Numbered from the stretch's first letter, positions 1,406 to 52,441 are shown. The stretch is DNA of 56,676 nt from Candidatus Spechtbacterales bacterium (GCA_040902285.1 JBBDXP010000007.1:67042-123717); one strand, 5' to 3'. Notes: generated by a model not told the origin, from the letters alone. Numbers and translations are program-made.

Positions 1406-1521
1406 CCCGTTAGTGGCAGGTCGCGGCCTATTTGCAAGCCGTTTCCTGCGATTTTATTTTTATAACAATTTGTCTGAATGCCCGTTAATAATACTATGCC
1501 GTGACCGCGGCCACTAACGGG
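1406..1521 (-). repeat. CCCGTTAG...CTAACGGG start-codon-abutting element, subfamily C
   Basis: Terminal inverted repeat catcccgttagtggc / gccactaacgggatg; abuts the ATG at 1405. Confidence 0.85.
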
Positions 1522-1543
1522 ATGCATATTTTTATTCTAACAT

Positions 1544-2566
1544 TTATTCAGCAAATAATTTTTGGGCCTCGTTCCATATTTCGGTTTCTCCCTGTTCGCG
1601 CAGCCAAACAAACCATTCTGCTCCCCAGAGGTAAAACTCGTCAAAACCGGTGCGCCTGGCAAATTCCATATTCGCGCGGAATTGCTCCGGATTTAATGTT
1701 TTATATTGTTCTTCCAAAGAATTTTTTGATATTGGGGGATCCGCTACCCAGGGCTCCGCCTGGAGTTCAGATATCAAAACCCTTACATTCGGTCGCCAAA
1801 AGTGCAAAATTTCCGCCTTTCTTGCGTAAAAAGTGGGATTAAGAAAATCATAACGCACAAAGCCGACCAAGGGATCATGGATTACTCTATATAAAGTGCT
1901 GCCCAGAATATCAGCCCTTTTTCCCGCCTCATACCAAACCGACCATTCACCAGTATCTGTGATTATAATCGGACGCGAAGGATCCAGTGTACGAACGAGT
2001 TTTATTTCTGCATCTAACAATGAAGGGTCTTCCTTGGGGCAAACCCCGAATTTAAGCAGCGGCTCATTTTCGACCTGCCAAGCCCAAACAACCGGATTAT
2101 CTCTGTAGTATGCCACAACATTCCTTATCATTTGAAAAAGCCAAGCGTCTTTTTCGAGCTGGGAAGCATCGTGATTATACCAATCCGGAAACCGGCATTC
2201 GGGCCATCTTGGTTGCTTAAAACCAACAACCAATATTGCCTTCCCTCCTCTCTTTTCAAGTTCCCGCAATTGCCAGTCCCATTTTGAAAAATCAAATTGT
2301 CCCCGCTCTTTTTCCAATTCATCCCAATATATAGGTATCCTGAAATTTCTTACGCCCATATCGTCCAAAAGCGCGGTGTAAGTTTCCTGCCAGTTCAGAC
2401 CCAGATCATCCGCCTGAGAATGGCCGAATGTTACCCCCCATGTTATTTCGCTGGCAGGTTCAACAGAACCTAAAAAAAAGAATCCATACAGCAAAACCAG
2501 AACAGTGTACGTAAAAAGAAGTATTCCAAAAAATATTTTTATAATTTTTCTTTTTACAGGTTTCAT
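1544..2566 (-). CDS. Membrane-anchored clan GH-A glycoside hydrolase (GH5/GH42-like)
   Basis: N-terminal TM; RIPIYWDELE..GQFDF; WQVENEP acid/base motif; ISELQAEPW putative nucleophile. Confidence 0.75.
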   Translation of the reverse strand: MKPVKRKIIKIFFGILLFTYTVLVLLYGFFFLGSVEPASEITWGVTFGHSQADDLGLNWQETYTALLDDMGVRNFRIPIYWDELEKERGQFDFSKWDWQLRELEKRGGKAILVVGFKQPRWPECRFPDWYNHDASQLEKDAWLFQMIRNVVAYYRDNPVVWAWQVENEPLLKFGVCPKEDPSLLDAEIKLVRTLDPSRPIIITDTGEWSVWYEAGKRADILGSTLYRVIHDPLVGFVRYDFLNPTFYARKAEILHFWRPNVRVLISELQAEPWVADPPISKNSLEEQYKTLNPEQFRANMEFARRTGFDEFYLWGAEWFVWLREQGETEIWNEAQKLFAE

Positions 2567-2575
2567 ATTCTATTT

Positions 2576-3484
2576 CTATGTAAGTAAAAGCCAAAATCCG
2601 ACTGCGATTCCCGCAATACCTAAAATCCGAATAACAAGAGCTTTTTTTGTCAGTTCTTCTTTTAAAATACTAGGACGGCGAATAGCCAAAATACCCACAA
2701 ATAACAAAACGAAAAAATATTGCACACCCGCCAAAGCGTTAATAAAAGCGAGTTGACCGGACGCCACCTGCCATATCGCCAGTTTCTGCATAATGGAACC
2801 GCCTCCTCCGGCACTCTTTTGAAGCAAAATAGCGCCCCACACTTTTTTTTGTTTAATAGGATTCTCTTTAAATACCACTTCGCGTGTATGTCGGGAAAAT
2901 AAAAGCAAAAGAGAAAACAATACAGATCCCGCCTGTATCCATATCAGACCGTTTATAAGACCCTGATCTTCAAATACCAATTTAGTGCCCACAAACGCCG
3001 CGCCCAAAATAACAGAAGCAGGCAACACACGAAAAAATTCATGTCCCGTAGTTCTGTTTTTATCAAAATAAAAAAACATGGAGCCCGTTAGCATTAAAAC
3101 AAAAGCAAATATTATCTGAGGACTTAACATGATTCCTTCTCTAAAAAAAACAAAGGCAAACAAGAGCGTAAAAATTGCCGCGAGAGAACCTATCATGGGG
3201 AGCGTTGTTGTGGCATGGCCAAATTTCAGAGCATTGTAAAGCGCCCACAGCCAAGCAACTCCCAAAAATCCGGTCAGCAGCGCAATAAAAATGATACCGA
3301 TTGAAGGTATTTCAAAACCGAAAGGAACCAGAACCACAGCCCAAACTCCCGTGATACCGCCATAAAATGCCGCTGTTCTTCTGTGTTGTAAAGGTCCGGC
3401 CAAAAGATACCGATCAGAAATTGAAGCCAGCGCGAAAAGAAAATAAGAAGCAATTGTAAAATATAACCAAAGCATATTATTCAT
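2576..3484 (-). CDS. EamA/DMT-family transporter
   Basis: About 10 hydrophobic helices in two repeats, 302 aa. Confidence 0.7.
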   Translation of the reverse strand: MNNMLWLYFTIASYFLFALASISDRYLLAGPLQHRRTAAFYGGITGVWAVVLVPFGFEIPSIGIIFIALLTGFLGVAWLWALYNALKFGHATTTLPMIGSLAAIFTLLFAFVFFREGIMLSPQIIFAFVLMLTGSMFFYFDKNRTTGHEFFRVLPASVILGAAFVGTKLVFEDQGLINGLIWIQAGSVLFSLLLLFSRHTREVVFKENPIKQKKVWGAILLQKSAGGGGSIMQKLAIWQVASGQLAFINALAGVQYFFVLLFVGILAIRRPSILKEELTKKALVIRILGIAGIAVGFWLLLT

Positions 3485-4667: not shown

Positions 4668-4694
4668 TAATATTATTTTAACACTAGCGACAAC

Positions 4695-4719: not shown

Positions 4720-4722
4720 AAA

Positions 4723-5253
4723 TTATTTTGCCGGAACAAAATTCCTGGGCGGAAGGGCAAATCTATCGGCAACATTACTTGCGGCGTATGATTCGGGCTT
4801 GATGGCAACCTGGAATCCCGAACCCTTTACCATACCCACGACTTCCTTAATCATATCCTTTGTGTCCCCGTTTTGGCCGATATCTATATGTATCATAAAA
4901 TTATTGTGGACAAAATCCTCGCCCAAATGCTCTGTTAGAACGGGTACTATCTGCTGAGCTAAAAGCAGAGATAGGGTCGCTTCGTTATAAATTTTCTGCC
5001 TTAGAGAAGAATGGGTAAAAACGATATTTTTGCAGATAAAAGCGCGCCCTCCCGCGCCAACGCGATGCACCACAATGGCCGAAGCGTACGGTATGTCTCC
5101 ATACCCCTCCGAATCAGTGCCTATTATTATTCTGTAATCTTTTTCTGTGTCTTCGCGGGTATAAGCGACGATTTCGGCGATAACACCCTTAAAATTCGTC
5201 TGCCTGTGCGTAAGGGTTATAAATTTTTCGAAGTTGTAATCTATCTTATCCAT
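4723..5253 (-). CDS. RNase H-like YkuK family (DUF458) protein
   Basis: IIIGTDS, AIVVHRVGAGG, IHIDIGQNG, IKPESYAASNVAD motifs. Confidence 0.85.
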   Translation of the reverse strand: MDKIDYNFEKFITLTHRQTNFKGVIAEIVAYTREDTEKDYRIIIGTDSEGYGDIPYASAIVVHRVGAGGRAFICKNIVFTHSSLRQKIYNEATLSLLLAQQIVPVLTEHLGEDFVHNNFMIHIDIGQNGDTKDMIKEVVGMVKGSGFQVAIKPESYAASNVADRFALPPRNFVPAK

Positions 5254-5365
5254 CCCGTTAGTAATTACTGCTTGCGCAGTTTTAATTTATGTATATTTAA
5301 ACAAATTAACTACTTGTATTTGTTGCACTTGGTTTAGTGAACCCGTTAGGGTAATTACTAACGGG
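5254..5365 (-). repeat. CCCGTTAG...CTAACGGG start-codon-abutting element, subfamily A
   Basis: 15-bp TIR cccgttagtaattac / gtaattactaacggg; abuts ATG 5253; near-identical to copies at 23569 and 42950. Confidence 0.9.
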
Positions 5366-5425
5366 AATCATCCCCAGCACTATACCATAAATTTTATAAA
5401 ACACAAGTTTAAATATATGCAGAGC

Positions 5426-21243: not shown

Positions 21244-21356
21244 CCCGTTAGTAATTGCTGCTATGCAGTTCTATCGCAATAAAATGCTACAGCGGTAATT
21301 ATTATGAATTTTGGTATTGTTTAAACGGATGACCCGTTAGGGTTATTACTAACGGG
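21244..21356 (-). repeat. CCCGTTAG...CTAACGGG element, divergent subfamily A
   Basis: Same ends and internal gacccgttaggg; abuts ATG 21243; supplies the polA TAG stop (21349-21351). Confidence 0.88.
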
Positions 21357-23568: not shown

Positions 23569-23680
23569 CCCGTTAGTAATTACTGCTTGCGCAGTTTTAA
23601 TTTATGTATATTTAAACGAATTAACTATTTATATTTATTGCACTTGGTTTAGCAGACCCGTCAGGGTGATTACTAACGGG
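23569..23680 (-). repeat. CCCGTTAG...CTAACGGG element, subfamily A
   Basis: Abuts polA ATG 23568; flanked on the minus strand by ATGAAT on both sides. Confidence 0.9.
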
Positions 23681-39447: not shown

Positions 39448-40164
39448 ATGGATTTTTTAATAGGATTATTCAACAGTTTAATATTTGAGCCCCTGCTAAA
39501 CTTTTTAATAGTGGTAGTTAATTTTGTGCCGGGACACGCCTTGGGCCCGGCCATTGTGCTTGTTACGGTCATTATTCGTTTAATCCTTTATCCCCTTTCC
39601 CACAAAGCGCTTATTTCCCAAAGAAAGCTTTTTGCACTACAGCCCGAAGTTAAAAAAATTCAAGAAAAGCTTAAAGATAACAAGCAGGAGCAATCAAAGG
39701 TAATAATGGAGCTTTATAAAAAGGAGAAAATAAACCCTCTTGCCGGGTGTGTGCCTTTTCTTATACAAATCCCTTTTATATTCGGTCTCTACAGGGTATT
39801 TCTTTTTGAGTTGACGCCTGACAACCTGCCTCCTCTTTATTCCCTTGTCAGCATGCCCGAAAGCATAAGCACTGTATTTTTGGGAATATCATTATCTCAG
39901 CCATCTGTTATTTTGGCGCTTTTGGCCGCCGTGTCACAGTTTTTTCTTTCTAAATTCATGTTTTCTCGCCGAAAGAATATGGGGCTTTCAAGTGGGAAAA
40001 AAAATGACCTCCAAAGCATGATGGGAAAACAAATGACATATGTTTTGCCCGTTGTGACTTTTTTTATCGCCCAAAGTTTTCCGGCGGGACTTGCTCTTTA
40101 CTGGGTTACGACCACCCTCTTTTCTTTTGGCGAACAATATATTATAAATAGAAAGATATCTTAA
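39448..40164 (+). CDS. yidC: YidC/Oxa1 membrane protein insertase (short form)
   Basis: IIRLILYPL, LQPEVKKIQ, INPLAGCVPFLIQIP, PAGLALYW. Confidence 0.93.
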   Translation: MDFLIGLFNSLIFEPLLNFLIVVVNFVPGHALGPAIVLVTVIIRLILYPLSHKALISQRKLFALQPEVKKIQEKLKDNKQEQSKVIMELYKKEKINPLAGCVPFLIQIPFIFGLYRVFLFELTPDNLPPLYSLVSMPESISTVFLGISLSQPSVILALLAAVSQFFLSKFMFSRRKNMGLSSGKKNDLQSMMGKQMTYVLPVVTFFIAQSFPAGLALYWVTTTLFSFGEQYIINRKIS

Positions 40165-40173
40165 CAAGATTGC

Positions 40174-40290
40174 AACGCGGATTGATGCGGATTTTGCTGA
40201 TTTATACGGATAAGCCCAATTAAAAAAATCAGTATAAATTTGTTTAATCAGTATTCATCTGCGTTATTGCAAGCGTAGCGAGCAAAAAAC
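40174..40290 (+). repeat. Palindromic array of ~9-nt (GCGGATTTA-like) units, copy 1
   Basis: Four GAT-centred units mirrored by four ATC units; homologous to 49671-49778 in the opposite orientation. Confidence 0.7.
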
Positions 40291-40743
40291 ATGAGTGAAG
40301 TAATAAAAATAAAAAACGACATAAAAGAACTGCTTGAAGGGATGAATCTTATTCTTTTATATCCGCCTGAGGTCCACAATAATGATGAAAGAACAACCGT
40401 AAGTGTTTTTGTTGATGACCCCAGGGCCCTTATAGGTGAAGGAGGCGCCAGCTTGAGGGCTTTTCAGCACATAATCCGACTTATGGCGGTTAAAAAATAT
40501 GGCCCCGATATAAAAGTAGACGTTGATGTAAACGGATATAAACAAAAACGGGCCGAGTTTTTGCGTGAAATGGCGCTTTCTGCCAGGCGAAGAGCCATTG
40601 AAAAAGGAGGATCTGTGGAGCTTGAGCCAATGAACGCCTTTGACAGACGGGTTATACATACGACCTTATCTGAATTTAAAGACGTAGAAACCGAAAGTAC
40701 CGGTGAATATCCCCAAAGAAGAGTAACCATAGGCCTCGTTTAA
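40291..40743 (+). CDS. jag: Jag/KhpB-like KH-R3H RNA-binding protein
   Basis: LIGEGGASLRAFQ, DVNGY, LEPMNAFDRRVIH, STGEYPQRRV. Confidence 0.88.
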   Translation: MSEVIKIKNDIKELLEGMNLILLYPPEVHNNDERTTVSVFVDDPRALIGEGGASLRAFQHIIRLMAVKKYGPDIKVDVDVNGYKQKRAEFLREMALSARRRAIEKGGSVELEPMNAFDRRVIHTTLSEFKDVETESTGEYPQRRVTIGLV

Positions 40744-40768
40744 TACTCGGGGCCTATTTTTAATGAAT

Positions 40769-40882
40769 CCCGTTAGAAGTCGCGATCGCAACAGATGGGA
40801 CAAGTAATTTAAAACAATAATAATTCAAATAAATAATTAAGAGTTGCGGGTTGTGGCTTAATCGCGATCTGTTTCTAACGGG
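40769..40882 (+). repeat. CCCGTTAG...CTAACGGG element, subfamily B
   Basis: Abuts ATG 40883; preceded by ATGAAT; homologous to 52328-52441. Confidence 0.9.
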
Positions 40883-42313
40883 ATGAAGGGCATTTTTAAA
40901 AATATTACCCTAAATACTATTGCGTTTTCCGCCGGCAGGATTACCGGAGGACTAATGGGACTTCTTGTTATAGGTATTATAGCCAGATCTTTGGGTGCCC
41001 GAGGTTTTGGAGAATATGCCACCATTATTGCTTACCTCGGAACATTTCAAATCTTAGCTGATCTTGGCCTTTACTCTCTTTTAACAAGAGAAATATCTCA
41101 AAACCCCGAAAAGGAAAAAGAGATTATAGGTTCATTTTTAACGCTGCGTCTTTTTGTCGCCGCGTTTTTTCTTTTAATCGCTTCGGCTCTGGTTTTTGTG
41201 TTTCCTTATTCCATGGAGGTTAAAATAGGTGTTGTGTATGCCGCCTCCGGATTTTTGTTTCTTTCACTTTCCCAGATATTTTTGGGTGTTTTTCAAAAGT
41301 ATATGCAAATCTACAAGGCCGCCATATCCGAAGTTATTGGGCGCGGAATACAGCTTGGCATAGTTTGGTTTCTTTTTTCCGCGGGTGGGACCTTGTTTTC
41401 TTATATAGGGGCTATGGTAGCCGGGGCTTTCGTTATGTTCGCGCTTAATATTTTTTTTGCAACAAGAATCGTGTCTTTTAGGCCCAGCATATCTTTGCAT
41501 AAATGGAAAAACATATTAAAACAGACCTATCCGATTGCTGTTTCTTTGATTTTTACCCTTCTTTATTTTAAAGCGGATACAATATTGTTATCTGTTCTTA
41601 AATCCCCCGAAGATGTGGGTCTCTATAACGCCTCTTATAAAGTTTTGGAAACACTTATATTCTTTCCGGCGGCTTTCGTCGGGCTTATGCTGCCTATAAT
41701 GTCCAAGTATGCTAAAGAAAACAGAGAAAAATTGTCTAAATTGCTGTCTGCCCTATCTGATATAATTACGGTATTTGCTTTGCCCATTGTCGCGGGCGGT
41801 GTTATTTTGTCCGCCACATTTGTGTACATTATAGGCGGACAGGAGTTTTTGGCCGCGGCGCCCGCAATGATGGTATTGTTTCTTGCTGTTGGAATAATTT
41901 TTTACGGCACGCTGTGGGGCAACTCTGTAATCGCCCTAAATTTGCAAAAGAAAGCAATGAAAATATACTTTGCCGGATTTGTTTTTAATTTTATCGCAAA
42001 CCTGCTTTTTATACCGGCATATTCATATATGGGGGCCGCTTGGACTACGGTTGTTACCGAACTTTTAGTTACAGCGTGGCTCTTTTTGCTTGTAAAAAAG
42101 GAAATTTCTTTTAGTATTTCTTTGAACGCAATAACAAAGGCGGTCGCGGGGACCGCCTTAATGAGTGTTGTTGTTTTTTACATCGCGGGCTCTCTTTACG
42201 AGCCGGTTTCTGTAATAAGATTTATAATGGCAATACTTGGCGGCATTGTTTTGTATTCTATGTTCGGGTTAAAAATTCTTAAAAATTTGTTCCAAAAAGA
42301 GGTTTTGCGCTAA
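40883..42313 (+). CDS. Wzx-like polysaccharide flippase (MOP superfamily)
   Basis: ARSLG..GFGEY, ADLGL...TREIS, DTILLS, VGLYNA, GAAWTT; about 14 TM. Confidence 0.88.
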   Translation: MKGIFKNITLNTIAFSAGRITGGLMGLLVIGIIARSLGARGFGEYATIIAYLGTFQILADLGLYSLLTREISQNPEKEKEIIGSFLTLRLFVAAFFLLIASALVFVFPYSMEVKIGVVYAASGFLFLSLSQIFLGVFQKYMQIYKAAISEVIGRGIQLGIVWFLFSAGGTLFSYIGAMVAGAFVMFALNIFFATRIVSFRPSISLHKWKNILKQTYPIAVSLIFTLLYFKADTILLSVLKSPEDVGLYNASYKVLETLIFFPAAFVGLMLPIMSKYAKENREKLSKLLSALSDIITVFALPIVAGGVILSATFVYIIGGQEFLAAAPAMMVLFLAVGIIFYGTLWGNSVIALNLQKKAMKIYFAGFVFNFIANLLFIPAYSYMGAAWTTVVTELLVTAWLFLLVKKEISFSISLNAITKAVAGTALMSVVVFYIAGSLYEPVSVIRFIMAILGGIVLYSMFGLKILKNLFQKEVLR

Positions 42314-42325
42314 GGTTTGCTATTT

Positions 42326-42949
42326 TCATTCTGCAACACACTCTTTACCGTTCCAGTCACAACCTTCCACATCGCACTCTTTTTCGCTTTTCATGAGATT
42401 GCAGTCGGGTTCGTCGGGAACACCTATGGGTTCTATTTTGTCTACACACTTGCTGTTTTTCCATTCACACTCAGGATGGCTGGGGCATTGGGAAAAATTC
42501 CATTGCGCGCAACCCGCGGGTTTTACGGAAGGGTCCTGCAGATTTGTTATTTGCGGATTTATAATATTTAAAATTATTACAGACAACAACAATATAAATA
42601 TACCCCACACCACATTTTTTAATCTTTCCCTCGCGGCGGCTCTAACCGCGGGGCTTTCTCCTCCGACTATAAACTGGATACCCGTGTATATTAAAGAAGT
42701 AAACGCGACCAGTCCCCCTATCCATATAGAGGCGACAAAAAGGAATAATATTATGTTGCCTATGGTCGGGTTGCAGGTTCCGTCTTCTATGCAGTTTAGA
42801 TCAAAAAATCCGCCGGGAACAGGCGCGGGTATTTTTGGGTAGTTTACATTCAAATCTATGCCCGCCGCGTTTGCGTTTACGGCAAGCGTCAAAACAAGGA
42901 TGCTAAAAACAGCAAGAGGTATTATTTTTTTAAAAATGTTCTTTTTCAT
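42326..42949 (-). CDS. T4SS pilin-like (TrbC/VirB2-like) protein with short Cys-rich tail, paralog 3
   Basis: Signal peptide ANA|A; YPKIPAPVPGG; IYTGIQFI...AAARERLKNVVWG...ILNIINP. Confidence 0.75.
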   Translation of the reverse strand: MKKNIFKKIIPLAVFSILVLTLAVNANAAGIDLNVNYPKIPAPVPGGFFDLNCIEDGTCNPTIGNIILFLFVASIWIGGLVAFTSLIYTGIQFIVGGESPAVRAAARERLKNVVWGIFILLLSVIILNIINPQITNLQDPSVKPAGCAQWNFSQCPSHPECEWKNSKCVDKIEPIGVPDEPDCNLMKSEKECDVEGCDWNGKECVAE

Positions 42950-43061
42950 CCCGTTAGTAATTACTGCTTACGCAGTTTTAATTTATATGTATTTAACTAA
43001 ATCAACTACCTATATTTACTGTACTTAGCTTAGCAGACCCGTTAGGGTAATTACTAACGGG
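42950..43061 (-). repeat. CCCGTTAG...CTAACGGG element, subfamily A
   Basis: Abuts ATG 42949; homologous to copies at 5254 and 23569. Confidence 0.9.
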
Positions 43062-43068
43062 ATTCATT

Positions 43069-43731
43069 CTATTGCTCTTCCGGTGACGCAAAATCTTCTG
43101 TGTATGGCTCTTCATGCTGTTCCAATTGCTGTTCCAATGCCAGGGTATCCAGTCCCGGGGAACTCGCGATTCTATAATAAAAGCTGGCCTCTGATTGCGG
43201 GACAAAATATAAAACTCCGGTTATATCCTGCAAATTGCTTGATTCTACGGCTACGCCCTCTTCCAGAAAAATATGCCACGGCCACTCGCTCTCATTGCTC
43301 CAGTAAACAAGATCCGGCTCACCATACTTATCTGTGTAGTCCGAAAAAGCTCCTCTGTAGTCGGAGTAAACATATTCCAGCGCGTAATAAACGGTTTCGC
43401 CTCTAAGCGCCACAACATTTTCAAAAAACTCTATGGGTGTTTTATAATACATATAAGTAAACACATCGTGCGTGGACACGGTGTAGGGCCGGCCAATAAT
43501 CTTTTCCACATCCTCGCGTGTGCTTTCCCCCGGGATTATCTCGTTAATCCTGCTGTAATCGGCTTCAAGGTCCATTGTCGGAGGAGCTTGATCGGGATCA
43601 ACTACCTCTCTTTCAAGTACCGCGCTTTCGTCCTCCCCGCTTGTCAATGTCAGTATAATCGCAACAACACCTATGACAAGAAATAAAGATATGGCTAAAA
43701 GAAAAATATGTTTTTTGATAAAATCTATCAT
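43069..43731 (-). CDS. Acidic membrane-anchored protein with a BamE/BLIP-like motif
   Basis: N-terminal TM; IIPGESTREDVEKIIGRP and KYGEPD half-repeats. Confidence 0.6.
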   Translation of the reverse strand: MIDFIKKHIFLLAISLFLVIGVVAIILTLTSGEDESAVLEREVVDPDQAPPTMDLEADYSRINEIIPGESTREDVEKIIGRPYTVSTHDVFTYMYYKTPIEFFENVVALRGETVYYALEYVYSDYRGAFSDYTDKYGEPDLVYWSNESEWPWHIFLEEGVAVESSNLQDITGVLYFVPQSEASFYYRIASSPGLDTLALEQQLEQHEEPYTEDFASPEEQ

Positions 43732-43743
43732 GATGTTAAAGAA

Positions 43744-45363
43744 TTAAGGATTATAAACATTCGTATTCATCCACCTGTTGGTGTCATCGCACTGCGTAGG
43801 TATGCTTGATATGTTTTGTGAGCATAAAAACCTTCCCCCGCGGTTAGTATACAGATAGTTAGCCATGCCTTCGGCGAAAGATTCTGAAAAGGCGCGAATT
43901 TTGGTGATACAGGAACTGCCGCCGTAAGACGGGCAGTAATAACGTAAGGCGTATGTTTTGACAAAGTGACGATCAGAATACGACGGGAAACAACTTGAAC
44001 TATCGCGCTGATAGCAGTCGGGGTCCAGGGTAGCCAAACCGGACAGGGCCGAGGTGAACTGAGTGCTTAAGCGTGGGTTTCTGCCGGTTATTATGTGCCC
44101 GCTTTCATGTTGTACTAGGCCGACTATTGCCGGATTGGTAAGCGTTAAGCATCCGAGGGTTTTGAATAATATGGTGTTGGCGTCGGATGCGTACCCGAAA
44201 CAATAGGACGGGTCAGAAGATGTGGGGGCGTATCTTACATAAAGTATGTTTCCTCCATAAATTAAATTTGTTCTGTATCCCGGCCCCCCACTTGTGGTGG
44301 CTTGATACATTGCGTCCCATACCTTTTTTATAAAATTAGAATTACTTGTTCCGGTAACAACAACATTGAATTCTTGTTTTAGACAAGTTGCGTATCCTGA
44401 AAGGAAGGGATCGCATGAGAATGTCATTCCACATTCAAACCTGCAAACTCCCGGCGCCCCGCCAAGTTCTATGCATTTGTTGTAACAACTAAGAACAGGG
44501 GCGTTGGTTTCGTCATCGTCATCCGGAGATTCGCACCCTCCGTCCACGGGATAGTCGATAAAAGTATCATCGTCATTATCTATTCCGTCCGAACACTGCG
44601 GTGCCGATTCAGTATCGTCGTCTCTTGACTCACACTGCGGGTCTTCCGGATAGTCAACAAAACCGTCATTGTCATTATCTTCCAAGTCCCAGCATTCGGG
44701 CGGGGGCGGAATACAAGGAACATCTTTGGATGTTCTTGCGTCTATGCATTCTGAGTGTCTTACAAGGTAACACCAACGAAGGTCGGGCACATATCCGCTC
44801 TGGCAATTATCTTCAGCAACCTCGCACTTCTCTTCGTCTTCATTCCATCCGCACGAAAAAACCCCCGTTATCGCCTCCGGTTCGGGTATTTTAAGGTTGG
44901 AGATAGTTCCCTTGTCTGCACCTTGCAGAAGCGGGTCTCGTAGATTTGTTATGTCGGGATTTATTATATTTAAAATAACAACAGTGGATAAGAGTATGGC
45001 TATTCCCCACATAACTTTCTGCAATCTGTCTTTGGCCGCCAATCTTACTTGAGCATCGCTTCCGGCAAGTATAAATTGTACCCCCGTGTACAAAAGAGAA
45101 ATAAGCGCGACAATGCCCCCGACCCATATAGCGGATATAAACAGGAAAAAAATTATGTTGCTTATTGACGGGTCGGGTATGTAGGAAGAGTAGCACCCGG
45201 ACAAATCATTCCAAAATACATCAATGCAGTTTAAATCAAAATATCCTCCAGGAACGGGTGCTGGAATAGCGGGATAGTCGATACTAAAGGCAAAACTCTG
45301 CGCTGGGACGAATAGCGCCGCAAAAACCACTATACCTGTAATTATTTTAACTACCGCATGCAT
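43744..45363 (-). CDS. T4SS pilin-like protein with Cys/Asp-rich repeats and C-terminal HExxH metallopeptidase-like domain, paralog 2
   Basis: Pilin-like N-terminus; two CxDxxDNDxDxFxDYPxDxxC repeats; VQHESGH followed by ESFAEG. Confidence 0.75.
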   Translation of the reverse strand: MHAVVKIITGIVVFAALFVPAQSFAFSIDYPAIPAPVPGGYFDLNCIDVFWNDLSGCYSSYIPDPSISNIIFFLFISAIWVGGIVALISLLYTGVQFILAGSDAQVRLAAKDRLQKVMWGIAILLSTVVILNIINPDITNLRDPLLQGADKGTISNLKIPEPEAITGVFSCGWNEDEEKCEVAEDNCQSGYVPDLRWCYLVRHSECIDARTSKDVPCIPPPPECWDLEDNDNDGFVDYPEDPQCESRDDDTESAPQCSDGIDNDDDTFIDYPVDGGCESPDDDDETNAPVLSCYNKCIELGGAPGVCRFECGMTFSCDPFLSGYATCLKQEFNVVVTGTSNSNFIKKVWDAMYQATTSGGPGYRTNLIYGGNILYVRYAPTSSDPSYCFGYASDANTILFKTLGCLTLTNPAIVGLVQHESGHIITGRNPRLSTQFTSALSGLATLDPDCYQRDSSSCFPSYSDRHFVKTYALRYYCPSYGGSSCITKIRAFSESFAEGMANYLYTNRGGRFLCSQNISSIPTQCDDTNRWMNTNVYNP

Positions 45364-45422
45364 GTTTATATTATAATATGTTTTTATGGATTATCATGAT
45401 AAAATCGTATTTCTTGAAAAAA

Positions 45423-46415
45423 TTATCTATATTCCGGTCCGCAGTCATCGCCAAAAATCCACCATCCTCCCCCCCAGTCGCATCCGGTTTTTTCTTCGCA
45501 GTCCTTTTCGTTTTCCATAAGACCGCATGCGTCTATTCTTAAGCAAGATATGCCTATGAATGACGGACTTCCACAATCGCTACCCGCGTCGTTACATATT
45601 TCCTGTCTGGCCTCGTAGCCATAGGGGCATACATCATTCGCTACTATGCACTTCCCGCTCGAACGTATGCAATCAAATGTGCCCAGTTCGCACTCAAGAT
45701 TTATTGGAAGATTACTCGGATCTTCACAGGGAGGCCATGCTTCCCTGCACAGCCCTGGGGCACCTCCCTCTGCCACACATCTTTCATAACACATTTTACA
45801 GTCGGTTGTGTCGGCGCTACACGCGCCATCGGGGACAAAATATCCTTGTGTACATTCACTTATTGCTCCGCAGCCGGTGCCTGTACCGGGGTCATAACAG
45901 GAGTATGTTCCGGGCTTGTCCAGAGGGTCGTCTTCACCGCTGGGTACACCCAGGGAATCTGTGGTTTCTGTATCTACATTGTCAAGGTTTAAGCCAAGTC
46001 GTGTAAGATCGGGATTTATGGTATTCAAAACGACGGTTGTGGACAAAAGTATCAGCATGCCCAATATAACATTTTGCAACCTTTTTTTCGCTTCAGCTCT
46101 TATCGGCGGGCTTTGTCCCGAGAATACAAATTGTCCTCCCGTATAAATTAAAGATACCAAAGCTATAAATCCCCCTGCCCAAAGAGCCATGGCAAATACG
46201 AACAGCACCAAAGTGCCTATAGTTGCCGGCGGTCTGTAAGAGGATGTGCATCCGGAAGCGTTTTTTAATCCTCCGTTGGGAAGCTGGAGGCAATCCAAGT
46301 CCAAACTCCCTCCCGGAACAGGCGCCGGCACAGCCGGATAATCTATTGCCTGTGCTGACGCGGGCATTATAATCGCGGCAGCTATAACTATTAATAGTAT
46401 GCAAACTCTTCTCAT
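45423..46415 (-). CDS. T4SS pilin-like protein with long Cys-rich tail, paralog 1
   Basis: AQA|IDYPAVPAPVPGG; IYTGGQF...AEAKKRLQNVILG...LNTINP; start ATG 46415 coupled by TAATG. Confidence 0.75.
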   Translation of the reverse strand: MRRVCILLIVIAAAIIMPASAQAIDYPAVPAPVPGGSLDLDCLQLPNGGLKNASGCTSSYRPPATIGTLVLFVFAMALWAGGFIALVSLIYTGGQFVFSGQSPPIRAEAKKRLQNVILGMLILLSTTVVLNTINPDLTRLGLNLDNVDTETTDSLGVPSGEDDPLDKPGTYSCYDPGTGTGCGAISECTQGYFVPDGACSADTTDCKMCYERCVAEGGAPGLCREAWPPCEDPSNLPINLECELGTFDCIRSSGKCIVANDVCPYGYEARQEICNDAGSDCGSPSFIGISCLRIDACGLMENEKDCEEKTGCDWGGGWWIFGDDCGPEYR

Positions 46416-46747
46416 TATTTTGTCAGGTCCATTAGCGCTTTTTTTGTCCAATAACCGGGTATCCATCCGAAAAAGAAGTTTTTTAACCAAGTTTTTATTT
46501 TTTGCCCCAAGGATTTATCTTTATTAATTTCCACATGCTGGAAAATATTTAAGGTTATCATTCCCAAAAAAGGAGGTATGCCTTGCAGGGGCGCCGTAAA
46601 GCCCAGTGTTACAAGGGTGAAAAGCCAGAATATAACAGTCATCATATCAAGCATCATGGCCCAAAAAATTAATACAAAGCCCATGGCGCTGAATCTGCTT
46701 ACTCTTCTGTCGCGTTTTTTTAGGTTTTTGATTGCGAACTTTGGCAT
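46415..46747 (-). CDS. Small membrane protein of the T4SS-like operon
   Basis: Hydrophobic core; tightly packed between virB4 and the pilin paralog. Confidence 0.6.
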   Translation of the reverse strand: MPKFAIKNLKKRDRRVSRFSAMGFVLIFWAMMLDMMTVIFWLFTLVTLGFTAPLQGIPPFLGMITLNIFQHVEINKDKSLGQKIKTWLKNFFFGWIPGYWTKKALMDLTK

Positions 46748-46749
46748 AA

Positions 46750-48597
46750 TTATTCTTCCTCCTTGGCTTTTTGTATCTGCAAAAGCTGTTCAGGATCCGA
46801 GGTTATTATTTGGTCCTCCACATAGGAGGCAACCACTTTTATGGCAACATGCTTTGTGCCGGCAAAAAACAGGCCTTCTCCTACATTATTTTCAAGCAGA
46901 AGATATTTTTCTTCGTCCGTTAAGTTGAATATCTGCTGAAGTTTGTCTATGGTGGCGGCATGCTGTTTCATTAATATTTGCAGAGACGAGTTCGTGATTA
47001 TGGCTCTTCCGTAATCGGAGTTCATAAAATCCTCTATGTCTTGGGTTATGGTTGTAACTCCCAGATAGTATTTTCTGGCTCTTTTGGCTATACCGAACAA
47101 AAAGGCCGCGCTTTCGGGGTGCTGCAATAGCCACCACGCCTCATCTATGACCAGTATTCTTCTTTTTAGTTCTTTGCGTATATTGGTCCAAATGTAATTT
47201 ATTATTATGTACATTGCCACCGGCCTTAATTCGTCTTCCATGTCTCGGATATTAAATACGACAAGCCGGCTTTTAAGCTGAATATTGGTCTGTTTATTTA
47301 AAAATCCGGAATATACCCCCGTTGTGTATTTTTCCAAACGCTGCGCCAAGCTTTCCCCTCCCTCCATGCTGCTCAATACTGTGTGCAAGTCCTGCATAAG
47401 AGGTGGAGTTATTTCCCAAAAATTCGGAGTTGCCGGAGTTATGTCTTTGGATGCATATGTCTGGTTTATTGCTTCGTTCAATATGCTTTCTTCTTCGGGG
47501 GTCATGGATCCCAGCATTATTTTTAAAAGCCCTATAAGGGTTATTATATTAGCCCGCAAAACTTCTTTTGGGTCTTCGTCCTTTTGAGGCGCGGGCAGGT
47601 CGAACGGGTTGATATGGTCCCCGCTTGTAAGAGAAACTTTAAAAAAACTGCCCCCGGTTGTTTCGGCTAGGTATTGGTATTCATTTTCCGGATCTATAAC
47701 TATTACATCTGTTCCCATCATTAAGGAGCGCAGAACTTCAAGTTTTATGGCATAGCTTTTGCCGCCACCGCTCTTGCCGAGTATTACAGTGTTGGCGTTT
47801 TCCAGAGAAAACCTGTCAAAAAGTATTAAGCTGGAATTATGCCTGTTTATTCCGTAAAGAATGCCCTTATCGTCTGTAAGGTCAAAAGATACAAAAGGAA
47901 AAGTCGAAGAAAGCGGAGAAGTGTTTAAGCTTCTTGTCACCTTTAACTCGTCCAGGTTTACGGGTATGCCCGAGCGCAGGCCTTCTCCCTGCTGGTATAC
48001 AGCTTGCTTTAAGTAGACAAGACGGCTTTCCAATATAGAGCGTATTTCATTTTCTATTTTATCCAGCTCCTCTTTTGTTTTTCCGTATATCAAGACATAC
48101 AGGCCGAACTGGAACATTTTTTCTTCCGCTGTCTGCATTTTGTCCCGCAAATCTTCTATGTTGCGGTACGCGGTATCCAGGACCGGGTCGCGTATCATGC
48201 CCTTCTCTTCTCTTTCCATCATTTCCGCTTCAATTCCGGTAAGCCGGCTTTGTAGCTGTTTTAATATCTTTTCCGTGCTTACGGGTTGTATAAACATGGA
48301 AATATCAACCGTCTGATCCATATTTATAATGGGACTCATCCAGTTTTGCGCCAAATATCTGGGATAACTGAATACAAAAAGCGTGCGTACCAAAGTATTA
48401 CCCAGTTTTACATGGTCCAGCTCCACTTCTATGGCGGGGGGTGCTATCACATCAAGAAGTTTTTGGCGTTTTTGTTCGTTTATTTCCTTTTGGGTCTGTC
48501 CCTGCCACCGATAGCCCTGTATTGTTGCCGGCTGTTTGCCTGCCTGTCCGGTAGGCGGGCCCGGCTGCCGTGGGTTGTAATTGGGTTGTTGAGGCAT
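46750..48597 (-). CDS. virB4: VirB4/TraC-like ATPase
   Basis: GILYGIN, FDRFSLENAN, GKSGGGKS, VIDPENEY, INPFD, VIDEAW, KRARKY, TQD; start ATG 48597. Confidence 0.9.
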   Translation of the reverse strand: MPQQPNYNPRQPGPPTGQAGKQPATIQGYRWQGQTQKEINEQKRQKLLDVIAPPAIEVELDHVKLGNTLVRTLFVFSYPRYLAQNWMSPIINMDQTVDISMFIQPVSTEKILKQLQSRLTGIEAEMMEREEKGMIRDPVLDTAYRNIEDLRDKMQTAEEKMFQFGLYVLIYGKTKEELDKIENEIRSILESRLVYLKQAVYQQGEGLRSGIPVNLDELKVTRSLNTSPLSSTFPFVSFDLTDDKGILYGINRHNSSLILFDRFSLENANTVILGKSGGGKSYAIKLEVLRSLMMGTDVIVIDPENEYQYLAETTGGSFFKVSLTSGDHINPFDLPAPQKDEDPKEVLRANIITLIGLLKIMLGSMTPEEESILNEAINQTYASKDITPATPNFWEITPPLMQDLHTVLSSMEGGESLAQRLEKYTTGVYSGFLNKQTNIQLKSRLVVFNIRDMEDELRPVAMYIIINYIWTNIRKELKRRILVIDEAWWLLQHPESAAFLFGIAKRARKYYLGVTTITQDIEDFMNSDYGRAIITNSSLQILMKQHAATIDKLQQIFNLTDEEKYLLLENNVGEGLFFAGTKHVAIKVVASYVEDQIITSDPEQLLQIQKAKEEE

Positions 48598-48598
48598 A

Positions 48599-49249
48599 TT
48601 AATCAAAAATGGATTTAACAAGCCCCCTTTTTCTAAGATCTCCGGGATTATAAAGTATCCAGAACAAAGAAATAAGCTCTTCGGTTGTAAGAGTTCTTGC
48701 GGTAAGGCCGAGGCGGTGCAATCCGCTGGAAACAAAATCAACTCTTTGCATAAGCTGGCCTTTATAAAAAGAAAATTTTTCGGGATCTATCGTGGCCAAT
48801 TCTCCGCTCTTTCCCACCACACTTTTGAATCTCTCTCCGGCCCCTCCCTGCATTGTGGCGGTTTCTACCAAACTGAATGGTACAACCACATAAAAATCTG
48901 TGGCCACTATGTTTGCTTCTTTTACGAATTGCCCGATAAAGTTTATATATTCGTTTGTCTGCATTTGCAAAAGATCAGAAGTTTCCTGGGTTAATCTTTG
49001 TTGCAAACTTTCTATGTATCTGTCGATATTCATTAAACGGGAATTTATAAATATTTGTATTGAAAAATCCAGAGAATTTAAAAAGTTTTGATATTCGTAA
49101 ATTATCGCCTCTTGCTCCTGTTGGCTTTTTAACGCTAAGTTTATACTTGAAACCTGCAAAATGGCGCGCATGTGCCCGCCCTTAGCAACCACAACATCGC
49201 TTCTTATATTGTCTATTTTTACAAAATCTTGTGTGCTTGTTTCTGGCAT
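48599..49249 (-). CDS. VirB4-associated protein (TraC N-terminal-like) of the T4SS-like locus
   Basis: STQDFV, SSINLALKS..EQEAII..YQNFLNSLDF, FYVVVP; located between prgI and virB4. Confidence 0.7.
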   Translation of the reverse strand: MPETSTQDFVKIDNIRSDVVVAKGGHMRAILQVSSINLALKSQQEQEAIIYEYQNFLNSLDFSIQIFINSRLMNIDRYIESLQQRLTQETSDLLQMQTNEYINFIGQFVKEANIVATDFYVVVPFSLVETATMQGGAGERFKSVVGKSGELATIDPEKFSFYKGQLMQRVDFVSSGLHRLGLTARTLTTEELISLFWILYNPGDLRKRGLVKSIFD

Positions 49250-49250
49250 T

Positions 49251-49670
49251 TTATTGGTTTAAAATATCCGCTAAGTTTTTAATATCGCGCAATTTTTCTT
49301 CTTCGGTCGGTTCCGCTCGTTCCGCGGGAGCGGTTTTTTGATTACCGGAATATTGAGGCGCCCACTTGGTGCCCTTGGGCATTTTAGCTTCTGTTTTGCG
49401 CCAAGTGTATTTTCTGGGTTGGAAAAAATAATTTATAAAATACATTACGAAATCTATAAGCGGGCGCCCGTTAACCTGTACAAAAGCCATTGTCAGGGCA
49501 ACACCGGACACTATAACGGCAAGCAGCGTAAACACAAAAAAGTTCTTAAATAAAAGATAAAGCACGAATATTATCGCGCCCGCCCCCAGAAGTATTACTG
49601 TTTGCCGCACGGTTAGCGGTCCCAGCAACCTATCCTCTCTTTCAACAAATTGTGGTACGGGATATTGCAT
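49251..49670 (-). CDS. PrgI-family protein
   Basis: MQYPVPQFVEREDRLLGPLTVRQ, two TM, NGRP, PRKYTW. Confidence 0.85.
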   Translation of the reverse strand: MQYPVPQFVEREDRLLGPLTVRQTVILLGAGAIIFVLYLLFKNFFVFTLLAVIVSGVALTMAFVQVNGRPLIDFVMYFINYFFQPRKYTWRKTEAKMPKGTKWAPQYSGNQKTAPAERAEPTEEEKLRDIKNLADILNQ

Positions 49671-49778
49671 ATTTTTTGCTTCGCAAAACCGCAGATTTAT
49701 GCTGATTTAGCGGATTTATACTGATGATTTTAAATGCGTTATCTGTATCTATCAGCCCAATCTGCATTGATCCGCGTT
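49671..49778 (-). repeat. Palindromic array of ~9-nt units, copy 2
   Basis: Reverse complement aligns with 40174-40290, including the GCGA(A)GCAAAAAA(C/T)ATG end. Confidence 0.7.
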
Positions 49779-49796
49779 TGAGTGAACGAAGTGAAC

Positions 49797-50264
49797 TCAC
49801 TCTATTATTTTTCTCGTTACCGATTCGTCTTTGTGGTGCGATTCCGGTTTTTTTTCGTCTTTTACATCATTATCTTTTTCTCCCCTTGATGTTTCAGTTT
49901 CTTTCTTGGCTTCTTGAGCGGCTTTTTGCCAGTTTTCTTCCGCTTTTTCCTGCATGTCTGCCAGTTCTTTGGCAACCGGAGCAAAAATTTCGGCCCGCAC
50001 ATCATGCGCCACATTCCTTGCGGTTTCCGCATCAAGGCCAGCTTCACTTTGCAGGGCGTCAATAAATCTTTTTATTGGCACAAGGCCGACCATCGCGTAG
50101 CCTATGATGGCCGACACGTCAAAAATCTTATCTGCCTCGACATTATATCTTTGTGTCAAATTTTCCACGGCTTCAGCGGTATTTTCGGATAGAAGCATAT
50201 CGTTGACACCCTCAGGTATTTCATTGAATGCTTGTAAATATTCTTCTCGGGCAAAGTTTAACAT
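49797..50264 (-). CDS. Hypothetical acidic helical protein
   Basis: 155-aa ORF co-oriented within the operon. Confidence 0.65.
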   Translation of the reverse strand: MLNFAREEYLQAFNEIPEGVNDMLLSENTAEAVENLTQRYNVEADKIFDVSAIIGYAMVGLVPIKRFIDALQSEAGLDAETARNVAHDVRAEIFAPVAKELADMQEKAEENWQKAAQEAKKETETSRGEKDNDVKDEKKPESHHKDESVTRKIIE

Positions 50265-50298
50265 AAATTTATTTGAAAATATTTGTATTTACTTTTTT

Positions 50299-52327
50299 CT
50301 ATGAATCCTTATTCTTATCTTTATCTGTATCTTTATCCGTACCTCCGCTTTTTGCTGAATCTAACGCTTCCCTTATTTCTTCTCCAATATCTTTTTTTCT
50401 GGCAGTTTTGAGTAATGCGGCAATATTTGGACTGGTGCTAATATTGTTCGCGAAAGAAGAGCCCGTGCGGCGTTTTATTACATCTTCCACCGCGCCCCCG
50501 ACTAAGCCATAAGCAGCCGATATTCCTGCCTCCAATGCTTTTGTTTTTTCAATGTCTTTACCTATATCGGCAACAAAGCTCTTGGTAAACTTATCCTGTT
50601 TGATCAATTCATCTACTATACCCGGATCTTTTAAAACTCCAGGGGACCAGTTTCTCATCGATTTTTCTGTTGCTTTAGCTATAACTTCCCCAATATCTTT
50701 ACCGAGCTGTTTTGCAATGTCCGGCCTGATTTCGAGTACGCTCTTTTCACTGCCCGGCATTGTTATACTTCGGGCGTTCATCTCTTTTGCGAACTTCTCA
50801 AATTTCTTTGTTCCATTTGCCTTATCATCTGTTTTGAGTTTGTCCACATGCTCATTAAATTTGTCGGGATGCTTATTTACCAGTAAGTCGGTTATCTTTG
50901 CCCTTTCTTTTGAATTTGAGGTATAATTAAGGGCTTGAAGCAGGGCTGTTGGAGAATAATTATCATAACCCTTAACTTTTTTCCATTCTTGTTGGTATGT
51001 TTCTTTTCCGGCCCCGTATCCTTTTCTAATGGGTGCAACCAATTGTTTTATTCCCGGTAGTTGAAGCACGGTTTTAATCGGTTTTCCAACGCTACTCGTT
51101 ACCCCTTTTGCTTTTTCGGGTGTTACATCCTTATACAACGTGGATCCGCCTACGTCTCTTATTTGTCTTGACACCCACCTTCCGCTCGCGTTTACACCTC
51201 CTTGATACAGCCGTCTTGCCCCTTTTATTATTGCCTGTGAACCCTCCGCGCTGAATGACATACTCATCATTATTCCTATAACCAAGGCCCCAAGAGCAAA
51301 TACCATCTGTGACGCCTCACATATATTCAATTCTGCTTGCAAATCGTTAATCTCGGTTGGATTGCTTGTTATGACGGTGGGACAAGGCACTTCAAGGAAC
51401 CACCCGGCCAGCCACAGGGAGAAAAGAAGCGGAACTATTATTATGGACCACTGTATGAAATTGCTCCACCAGCGGTCGTATAATCTTGCCATCATATACT
51501 TAACGTTTAAAAATTAATCCTATAAAAGCTATTGGAGAAAGTATAACCAGTATTGTCAGCATAAGCGTTCTTCCGAAGAGTAGCAGGGATAAAAGCAAAT
51601 ATACAAATATTAAAAACAAGTTGATTAAAATAGAAACAACCGCTTTTACAAGTATTGCTATAGCTTCTGATATGTCCGCACTGAATATACTGCCCAACAC
51701 GGCAATTATATCTCCAAACACATCCCCTAAATAGTCGAAGCCCCCGAACGGATTACTGTTTATCAACGCGCTGCTGCTTCTTTTGGCGCTTTCCCAAAAA
51801 ACATAACCCGCTATATTTGATAGATCTATAATTATACCGGTTATTATCGGCGTAAAGTTTATCAGAAGCGCTACAACAAAAAATCTTCCCAGCATACGCT
51901 TGTTTATTGTCTGCAGATTGAGCATTGTTCCCACGCCTATAGCCACAAAAACAATAACAAGCGACATATTAGCTAAATCACGCATTACGGGCCAACCTAC
52001 ATCAAATATTGTTCCGGATGTGTAAGTATGTGTGAGTGTTAGCTCTAAGAAAAATTCCATGAACATCCGCGCTATCCACGCAACAAATATAAGCAACAGG
52101 TTTACTATTGCGGCTAGTATGACAACAACGGCTATTAAAAAGGCCATTACTATTCTGAAAAAGAACTCAAATACAGCCGTTGCAACATCTTCAAAGAAAC
52201 CGGCATTGGCTGGCTCTGGCATTAACATGAGGGTTCCTGCTATCAAAACAACAGCCACAATCAAAACAGTCCTCGCAACAGGCGCCTTTTCGTTAAAAAT
52301 ATTCTTAGGGTTTAAAATGCCCCTCAT
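50299..52327 (-). pseudogene. VirB6/TrbL-like polytopic membrane protein split by a frameshift (51500-52327 and 50299-51495)
   Basis: GWPVMRDLAN, VALLINFT, ILSPIAFI, then 'YDRWWSNFIQWS' continues in another frame; removing one base of ATTTTTAAAC restores one ORF. May be a sequencing error. Confidence 0.65.
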
Positions 52328-52441
52328 CCCGTTAGAAGCAGATTGCGATTAAACCACAACCTGCAGTTCTTAATTATTTATTTGAATTATTATTGTTTTA
52401 AATTACTCATCCCGTATATTGCGATCGCGACTTCTAACGGG
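52328..52441 (-). repeat. CCCGTTAG...CTAACGGG element, subfamily B
   Basis: Abuts ATG 52327; homologous to 40769-40882. Confidence 0.9.

Follow-up and report, generated by a model that had tools for sequence, protein, structure and literature searches.

Why should the same short DNA sequence recur directly in front of the start codons of functionally unrelated genes? This question arises from a stretch of 56,676 nucleotides from a Candidatus Spechtbacterales bacterium (GCA_040902285.1 JBBDXP010000007.1:67042-123717), called the window hereafter, in which seven dispersed elements of 112-116 bp had been noticed from the sequence alone, each fused to an ATG. The original prediction left two origins side by side, a non-autonomous element that targets translation starts and a domesticated leader or initiation module. 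It proposed a search of other Patescibacteria, a genome-wide tabulation of copies at start codons, a comparison of orthologous loci for empty sites, a search for longer copies enclosing an open reading frame (ORF), possibly a GIY-YIG nuclease, and an Rfam search. The analysis presented here favors the first origin. With a probability of roughly 0.7, the seven elements are non-autonomous copies, or MITEs (miniature transposable elements with inverted repeats), of a family of tiny mobile DNA elements encoding a GIY-YIG nuclease. Judged against Rfam and the literature, this family of GIY-YIG mini-elements inserting on start codons is probably undescribed.

Seven elements on seven start codons

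A scan of the window with the pattern CCCGTTAG-N(80-110)-CTAACGGG recovered exactly the seven elements already located (Table 1), and the same pattern had no match in 100 dinucleotide-preserving shuffles of the window. The terminal 8-mer occurs 19 times in the window, against 1.4 occurrences expected. Each element directly abuts the ATG opening an ORF (300, 176, 56, 739, 476, 207, and 275 amino acids [aa], in the order of Table 1), and the zero spacing claimed earlier thus holds in all seven cases. Five of the seven downstream ORFs are named by Pfam, as a BadF/BcrA-type ATPase (the sugar-kinase-like gene beside the 1406-1521 element), an RNaseH-like protein of the YkuK family (PF04308), PolA, a polysaccharide flippase, and a type IV secretion system (T4SS) pilin, in agreement with the names first proposed. 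The 56-aa and 275-aa ORFs gave no Pfam match, and the label "VirB6-like" given to the latter was not confirmed.

The terminal 8 bp are invariant, and pairing of the two ends extends to 12-15 bp, so that terminal inverted repeats are present. Between these ends lie three subfamilies of unrelated interiors, as had been described, with 30-55% identity between subfamilies, while the two subfamily C copies are 90% identical to each other. The constant orientation relative to the gene was borne out as well, all window copies aligning in the gene sense without flipping. At one locus, the TAG within the CCCGTTAG end of the 21244-21356 copy (21349-21356) now serves as the polA stop codon. On the strand antisense to the gene (plus), the subfamily A copy at 42950-43061 has hairpins at 42963-42976 and 43038-43061 that precede T-rich runs and score as terminator-like.

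Table 1. Elements of the window, the genes that follow them, and their flanking hexamers (gene sense).
Element	Coordinates	Strand	Downstream gene	Upstream flank	Downstream flank
Subfamily B copy, 116 bp	1406..1521	-	BadF/BcrA-type ATPase gene, 503-1405	ATGCAT (1522-1527, minus strand)	ATGAAA
Subfamily A copy, 112 bp	5254..5365	-	PF04308 gene, 4723-5253	ATGATT	ATGGAT (imperfect repeat)
Subfamily A (variant A4) copy, 113 bp	21244..21356	-	56-aa ORF, 21073-21243	ATGAAT	ATGAAA
Subfamily A copy, 112 bp	23569..23680	-	polA, 21349-23568	ATGAAT	ATGAAT
Subfamily C copy, 114 bp	40769..40882	+	flippase gene, 40883-42313	ATGAAT	ATGAAG
Subfamily A copy, 112 bp	42950..43061	-	T4SS-pilin-like gene, 42326-42949	ATGAAT	ATGAAA
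Subfamily C copy, 114 bp	52328..52441	-	275-aa ORF, 51500-52327	ATAAGT (decayed)	ATGAGG

Duplicated start codons and empty sites

What the original prediction had missed is that the start codon and the next two bases are directly repeated on either side of the element, the gene-sense arrangement being ATGAA-T, then CCCGTTAG…CTAACGGG, then ATGAA. In the source genome of the window (G000, 624 kb), the element stands between ATGAAT and ATGAAx, and bases 4 and 5 covary across the two sides (ATGAGT/ATGAG, ATGCGT/ATGCG, ATGGAT/ATGGA), with ATGTAT/ATGTA as a further covarying pair in other genomes. The flank repeat also holds at 30 loci from other genomes. Among 56 distinct elements from many genomes, the hexamer before CCCG is conserved as A88 T88 G82 A80 A80 T95 (in %), and no further conservation is found upstream of it. 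Where an upstream gene overlaps the start, its TGA stop now lies within the upstream ATGA copy (three cases in G000), and tandem copies in three other genomes are spaced by exactly ATGAAT (L020; L103 and L180). With T…A taken as the limits of the element, most copies have a repeat of the TGAA type, 4 bases long; a single fixed length of the target-site duplication (2, 4, or 5 bp) does not fit all of them. Elements of the family are inserted in a single orientation at 5'-ATGA(A/G)-3', which in practice means a gene's start codon and the two bases after it. The element then has the pentamer on either side, the upstream copy plus T keeping the native upstream signals and the downstream copy, after CTAACGGG, remaining the gene start.

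Orthologous loci without the element were found twice, each with a single ATGAA. A metagenome contig (L062), with a polA 81% identical, carries only one ATGAA at the place of ATGAA-T-element-ATGAA in G000. The site is that of the small ORF behind polA, where this contig reads …ATGAAGCTT… and the window …ATGAA-T-element-ATGAAACTT…; in the contig, the element is missing from both ends of polA, including the polA start. At the second site, G000 itself has a single ATGAAAGCA…, whereas an element precedes the same MKALITAGG gene in a genome of a sister genus (G002). That genome has nine element-bearing genes, and their G000 counterparts carry an element in only two cases, pheT and the sugar-kinase-like gene, the latter with a different subfamily; among the seven counterparts lacking it, one protein match was weak.

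Across G000, 24 copies of 61-116 bp were counted (20 exact, three with one end mismatch, and one cut by a contig end), all retaining only short, variable ORFs. One pair of copies is 100% identical, and nine copies are 93-100% identical. The tabulation at start codons showed clear enrichment, since all 21 copies with an ATGAA or ATGAG repeat (21/21) stand at ORF starts. With a crude gene call, the ATGAR sites of G000 divide into 111 at gene starts, 199 intergenic or at gene edges, and 1948 in coding DNA, and the binomial tail for at least 20 of 21 copies at starts among the 310 non-coding-compatible sites is 1.7e-8. Exceptions to the start rule are a 61-bp copy at ATGCG, 21 nt before the likely start (C1:32841), and a copy that precedes a 24-aa ORF behind a tRNA (C12:78121). 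In five element-rich genomes, the pattern has 115 matches, a few nested ones being counted twice, and ATG directly follows 82 of them.

Together, the duplicated start pentamer, the empty sites, the near-identical copies, and the different genes occupied in the sister genus indicate insertion of DNA and not a conserved leader RNA, which upholds the first of the two origins, a non-autonomous element that targets translation starts. By structure, the elements class as MITEs: they are shorter than 300 bp, non-coding, and multi-copy, with terminal inverted repeats, and they show target duplication and empty sites, the repeat length being non-uniform.

Long copies encode a GIY-YIG nuclease

When loci were scanned for more widely spaced ends, copies of 274-278 bp with the same ends and flanks were found in other genomes, which answers the search for longer copies enclosing an ORF. 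Those of 275-278 bp encode an ORF of 94-95 aa, in frame with the upstream ATG, in which Pfam recognizes GIY-YIG (PF01541; E 1.2e-17 and 2.2e-15) and no further domain above the cut-off. Five coding copies are intact (L095, L162, L212, L217, L226) and two are degenerate (L187, L234). The length of all five intact copies leaves a remainder of 2 when divided by three, and host ORFs of 105-485 aa follow; because of this remainder, the element ORF ends in …L-T-G, encoded by CTAACGGG, and then in a TGA overlapping the host ATG (ATGA). Its start can be either the upstream ATG copy, giving M-N/S-P-V-R with P-V-R from CCCGTTAGA, or a conserved internal Met10. In L217 and L226, where the upstream ATG is lost or out of frame, the ORF begins at the conserved internal Met.

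A protein search returned 3320 homologous clusters at E <= 1e-5 (among 3326 candidates). Within the best 120 of these 3320 clusters, 81 are 95 aa long, 76 begin with MNPVR and 11 with MSPVR, and 104 end with SLTG. The names given to homologues in their source records are "GIY-YIG nuclease family protein", "putative endonuclease", and, once, "excinuclease ABC subunit C", and no NCBIfam model names the long-copy protein. In an alignment of 52 sequences (mean column identity 83%), the invariant residues are Y14, Y25, G27, R33, R35, H39, and E59; of these, the tyrosines, arginines, histidine, and glutamate (Y14, Y25, R33, R35, H39, E59) are taken here to be the GIY-YIG catalytic motif. The AlphaFold model of the element protein has a predicted local distance difference test score (pLDDT) of 86.5, with residues 1-6 below 50. 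Its best fold matches are UPF0213 BH0048 (1zg2), Slx1, and At-HIGLE, with I-TevI and UvrC ranking lower, and the only PDB sequence match is again 1zg2 (E 1.9e-8). Motif and predicted fold thus assign the long-copy protein to the GIY-YIG superfamily, as a putative Slx1/UPF0213-like member. Carriage by phages was also considered, and a tblastn search of the nuclease against a phage collection gave no match.

Other small GIY-YIG genes are numerous in four genomes of the class (L206-L235, from G373, G265, G125, and G045); G373 alone yields 16 by Pfam. Several of these genes are enclosed by different long inverted repeats, and several are immediate neighbors of tRNA genes. Since different inverted repeats also bracket many small GIY-YIG genes across the class, placing the gene between paired ends seems to be a general plan in this protein family.

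From nuclease copies to the window elements

In other genomes, MITEs match coding copies over 15-24 nt at the left end and 18-26 nt at the right end (<=2 mismatches), and the common right end includes codons for …RFLSLTG. On this evidence, the MITEs of these genomes are taken to be internal-deletion derivatives of coding copies. Given that long relatives with the same ends encode the nuclease, the window copies are best read as non-autonomous relatives, that is, as MITEs of the same family. The copies of G000 and the coding copies also have in common their flanks, their orientation, and the MNPV start of the left-over ORF.

Several observations weigh against this reading. First, the copies of G000 and the five coding copies agree over no more than 12-17 terminal bases (<=2 mismatches); what ties the former to the nuclease is therefore that they have the ends, flanks, and orientation in common with the latter. 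No nuclease gene with these ends was found anywhere in G000. Its only two small GIY-YIG ORFs (C4:6165-6359 and C6:2442-2630) are on contigs other than that of the window, reach only 38-44% identity with the element protein, and are not bounded by these ends, which agrees with the earlier statement that the window contains no mobilizing enzyme. The ORF at C4:6165-6359 lies directly beside a tRNA gene. Small GIY-YIG genes also occur, by Pfam, in genomes free of the pattern (about eight in G005, five in G025, and three in G020), and the number of such genes was dropped as a discriminator after five element-free genomes did not discriminate. The GIY-YIG ORF could be cargo, its nuclease and transposition roles being predicted.

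Second, the flanks are not uniform. Three copies (L226, L049, L025) share only TGA across their flanks, and in six (L091, L101, L124, L147, L052, L061) the upstream ATGAAT is replaced by CTTGT, often as part of ACTTGT. These CTTGT-type copies share only TG; with the downstream ATGA, the helix would gain four pairs, two of them G-T, and none of the insertion models tried explained this left flank. Some copies are flanked instead by GTTGAC-type sequence. Two mini hairpins of 48 and 26 bp with the same 8-bp ends, intergenic and outside the window (G000:C14:29517-29564 and G000:C15:5962-5987), are flanked by direct repeats of GTTGAC and GTTCAC, and similar GT..AC-flanked copies occur in G003 (L056, L057, L059). 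For such copies there may be a second type of target, in which C…G takes the place of T…A beside the ends. Third, about 29% of elements in the five element-rich genomes are not followed by ATG. Finally, the left-over ORF of the MITEs has no constant frame or stop, length modulo 3 splitting 45/41/31, and only 35 of 117 stop at or next to the ATG. These scattered stops make translational coupling weak for the window copies, for which a coupling design is on that account not supported.

Proposed mechanism

Under the favored explanation, the element would be expressed from the promoter and initiation region of the host gene itself. In coding copies, the upstream ATG copy would start the element ORF and the TGA of ATGA would stop it, the same four bases starting the host gene, so that the two would be coupled. 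The host gene could then be read by termination-reinitiation, or after a ribosome has opened the terminal helix. A requirement for ATGA, the fixed orientation, and the boundaries of the ORF would all suit an element that uses host expression signals without killing an essential gene. An effect of the element on initiation of the downstream gene is likely.

The Slx1-like branch of the superfamily cuts branched DNA at junctions and is structure-selective. The nuclease may likewise act at the stem base of the paired ends and/or at ATGAA targets; the ends covary outside their invariant 8 bp, which is in keeping with an enzyme that recognizes a stem base and not a long sequence. Copies would then be joined or copied in by break repair through short flanking homology, and the variation in repeat length, from 2 to 5 bases, favors such repair over the fixed stagger of a transposase. 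The 112-116-bp copies of the window, which keep only the ends, would need the nuclease in trans or would now be immobile.

Alternative explanations

The alternative that survives best, which is considered unlikely, is that the elements are true MITEs moved by another enzyme, such as a RAYT-like Y1 HUH protein, the single Xer-type tyrosine recombinase, or an unassembled or other transposase, the long-copy GIY-YIG ORF being cargo or a separate selfish gene at the same safe site. Candidate enzymes exist in G000, namely a single RAYT-like gene, which matches Pfam Y1_Tnp at E 1e-7 and, below the curated cut-off, NCBIfam REP_Tyr_transpos at E 1.7e-11, and a single tyrosine recombinase. The succession right end-ATGAAT-left end in tandem copies resembles a recombinase core site, insertion is orientation-specific, and small GIY-YIG genes do not track the elements at the Pfam level. 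However, the RAYT-like gene is bounded by its own, different palindrome, with five copies in the genome, four of them clustered within about 2 kb of the gene, and none of the CCCGTTAG ends adjoins it, so that RAYT in its simplest reading as the mobilizer was set aside. The palindrome of the RAYT-like gene is a perfect one of 17 bp, present within the gene as well as on its flanks; the gene encodes 239 aa (L069, G000:C5:28540-30640). The Xer-type gene does not discriminate, as it is single-copy in all five genomes checked. Moreover, G045, which is 100% complete and has 17 elements, contains no Y1, DDE_Tnp_1, rve, or resolvase match, and the last three were not found in G000 or G265 either. The first and last codons of the nuclease ORF coincide with the element ends in thousands of clusters, which would be hard to explain for passive cargo.

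It is improbable that the elements are functional structured 5' leaders, or translation-control modules, that spread because they are useful and whose closing helix hides the start region until it is opened by translation of a short upstream ORF or by a factor. Their constant sense orientation fits such a role, and so does the 12-15-bp terminal helix, which closes right at the ATG in all folded copies. Two copies from records titled Omnitrophota (L135) have a GGAGG in the right arm, nine bases ahead of the ATG, and the complementary sequence in the left arm. Use of Shine-Dalgarno sites is also very low in G000, where GGAG precedes 8% and GGAGG 3.5% of 597 long ORFs; the upstream regions of these ORFs are A/T-rich, and the assembly yielded no convincing 16S 3' end. 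By analogy, the Neisseria REP2 repeats offer a precedent for repeats contributing a promoter and a ribosome-binding site (RBS) along with the ATG, as described in the available part of that report (PMC3184786). Against this stand the target duplication and the empty sites, which show insertion, and the unrelated interiors of the subfamilies. The downstream genes are housekeeping genes, functionally unrelated as the original prediction had noted, and the short upstream ORF has neither a fixed frame nor a fixed stop. A promoter consensus scan of 40000-53000 gave weak 9-of-12 matches in the two subfamily C copies and, in the sense direction, none in the subfamily A copy. Rfam had no match at gathering threshold across the whole window and none at E <= 1 for 40700-43120 and 1350-1580, and folding is unbiased, the sense RNA being the more stable of the two strands in 26 of the 55 copies and the less stable in 27. 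A structured RNA was therefore set aside, and the data do not support the domesticated leader as the origin of the elements.

Least probable of all is survivorship, in which insertion would be specific only for ATGAR, genic copies being lethal, free intergenic copies soon deleted in streamlined genomes, and copies wedged between a stop and a start codon lost only by precise excision: it draws on the 1948 of about 2260 ATGAR sites that lie in coding DNA, on G000 being about 91% coding, on the 61-bp copy at C1:32841, and on the elements without a following ATG, but the youngest copies (the nine at 93-100% identity) are all at start codons, all 199 intergenic or edge non-start ATGAR sites are unoccupied, and the full-length ORF is built on ATG…ATGA, starting at the upstream copy and ending in a stop that overlaps the host ATG. 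Some part of the bias toward start codons may come from survivorship, which explains neither the young copies nor the ORF design.

Distribution and variants in other genomes

The search of other Patescibacteria found the ends followed by ATG in 91 of 401 sampled genomes of the class and in none with a reversed control. Record titles of the pattern-bearing genomes name Paceibacteria/Parcubacteria. A scan with an exact 14-mer, covering one genome per species, matched at least 119 stretches; among the matches listed, most titles are Parcubacteria/Paceibacterota, some are Levyibacteriota, Kerfeldbacteria, or "Saccharibacteria", and many others are chance matches without a second end. Complete short elements with ATGAAT/ATGAA flanks are present in records titled Omnitrophota and Planctomycetota as well. 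Short copies of 36-65 bp in these records are found at L135, L152, L131, L150, L151, and L160, and some of the Planctomycetota-titled ones precede only very short ORFs.

Interiors are very diverse, ranging from GC-rich hairpins of 63-74 bp to AT-rich forms of 100-130 bp, and the paired ends covary beyond the invariant 8 bp. Nested elements also occur. In G125, a GC-rich copy holds a 75-bp copy at the tip of its hairpin, and this composite is itself repeated three times (G125:C3:95744-95857, C6:42565-42678, C6:88922-89017). Four elements hold a whole-tRNA-like sequence between the same ends, of which ARAGORN called Arg-TCT in L052 (G003:C20, 1501-1603) and Leu-CAG in L061 (G107:C9, 1599-1705), those at G023:C37:18610-18698 and G373:C5:166466-166570 being judged by eye. 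The L052 and L061 elements sit inside another tRNA gene of the same type, in the T-loop and the anticodon loop, between CTTGT and ATGAR, and it looks as if the disrupted tRNA had been replaced by the element-borne copy. No exact insertion rule could be derived from these two genes, since removal of the element with 0-7 flanking bases gave several tRNA-like solutions, none unique. A 63-bp copy lies inside the single Xer-type recombinase gene of G373 (L074, 1795-1857; G373:C7:56404-56466), between GTTCAC and GTAAAA; the gene keeps an open frame of 357 aa, compared with 309-324 aa in four other genomes.

Significance and comparison with known systems

Literature searches, which had little coverage of subscription journals, found no description of such elements, and the two 8-mer ends, searched as words in DNA and RNA spelling, gave only primers and unrelated matches. 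Whether this is a new class of prokaryotic transposable element, with a 95-aa Slx1-like GIY-YIG nuclease as its sole protein, parasitizing translation starts and spawning MITEs across Patescibacteria and beyond, is evenly poised; in such a class, variants may carry whole tRNA genes, sit inside tRNA genes, or lie in frame inside protein genes. An autonomous element of about 275 bp would be the smallest mobile element of that kind known to us. To our knowledge, five kinds of nuclease move bacterial DNA elements; if the nuclease link holds, GIY-YIG would be the sixth such chemistry, in an element barely larger than a 95-aa gene. The seat on the start codon, the duplication, and stop-start coupling could allow persistence in genomes of 0.5-1 Mb that are more than 90% coding. 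For annotation, gene callers meet two ATGs about 118 bp apart, as well as 95-aa "GIY-YIG family" ORFs labeled as UvrC fragments. The elements also amount to a natural experiment on translation initiation in Patescibacteria that hardly use Shine-Dalgarno sites, and a 95-aa nuclease with a defined short DNA signal could have practical interest as a tool.

Among MITE-like repeats, Correia (CREE/NEMIS) and ERIC are 100-150 bp long, have terminal inverted repeats, occur in many copies beside genes, are co-transcribed, form a long hairpin, and make a short target duplication. The present elements resemble them in small size, inverted ends, copy number next to genes, hairpin, and flanking target duplication. 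Correia/NEMIS repeats duplicate TA, have 26-bp inverted repeats, and are hosted by Neisseria, whereas the duplication here is the ATGAR start-codon target, the orientation is fixed, and the hosts are Patescibacteria; membership was rejected for these reasons. Unlike both Correia and ERIC, the ends are conserved across the class and beyond while the interiors differ, and the coding relatives carry a GIY-YIG nuclease, not a DDE transposase.

Selfish GIY-YIG homing endonuclease genes are known from the free-standing seg genes of phage T4 and intron-borne I-TevI, whose spread is thought to begin with a nuclease cut. These enzymes have long DNA-binding domains, recognize one long site, and home to a cognate allele, with no paired ends, short target repeat, or MITEs. 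A GIY-YIG nuclease gene as a selfish element between host genes is the common feature, but the element protein consists of an 80-aa catalytic core with short tails, and the elements lie at dozens of unrelated genes. A classical homing endonuclease was therefore rejected, given the 94-95 aa, the lack of an extra Pfam domain, and the many unrelated target genes.

REP/REPIN-RAYT systems are short palindromic multi-copy repeats, vertically persistent and tied to a single small nuclease-type gene, which makes them similar to the present elements in their repeats and in the link to one such gene. We know of no REPINs that duplicate a target or sit on start codons, and membership was rejected because the RAYT-like gene of G000 (C5:28.8 kb) is flanked by a different palindrome, with no CCCGTTAG end nearby. 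Elements derived from IS200/IS605 have neither inverted ends nor target duplication and depend on a Y1 transposase; the presence here of inverted ends and a flanking repeat speaks against such an origin. Integron attC sites are 57-141 bp long, with only the ends conserved and a variable palindromic interior, and stand just before the next ORF. Size, conserved ends, variable interior, and position are shared, but the GTT/AAC core-box order is reversed, core housekeeping genes flank the elements, and the copies are scattered instead of forming arrays.

The REP2 repeats of Neisseria and the IR repeats of Borrelia lie immediately upstream of unrelated genes, with the ATG fused to the ORF; REP2, according to the accessible part of the same report, is without terminal inverted repeats and carries a promoter and an RBS (PMC3184786). 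The present elements differ from REP2 in their paired ends, duplicated start pentamer, empty sites, and coding relatives. With the Slx1-like and UPF0213 (YhbQ-type) proteins, the long-copy protein has size, fold, and catalytic motif in common. Stand-alone Slx1-like proteins were described as a minimal GIY-YIG domain, and none is presented, in the accessible portion of that survey, as lying between inverted repeats, as multi-copy, or as an insertion at start codons (Dunin-Horkawicz 2006; PMC1564403). Insertions in the rRNA genes of the Candidate Phyla Radiation include GIY-YIG ORFs in non-intron insertions and many short unclassified insertions, at least in the sections available of the study reporting them (PMC11270868); these may be relatives of the present family, and some of them may be explained by it. 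Altogether, the closest known systems are Neisseria REP2 in behavior, MITEs such as Correia in structure, and the stand-alone Slx1-like GIY-YIG proteins for the protein.

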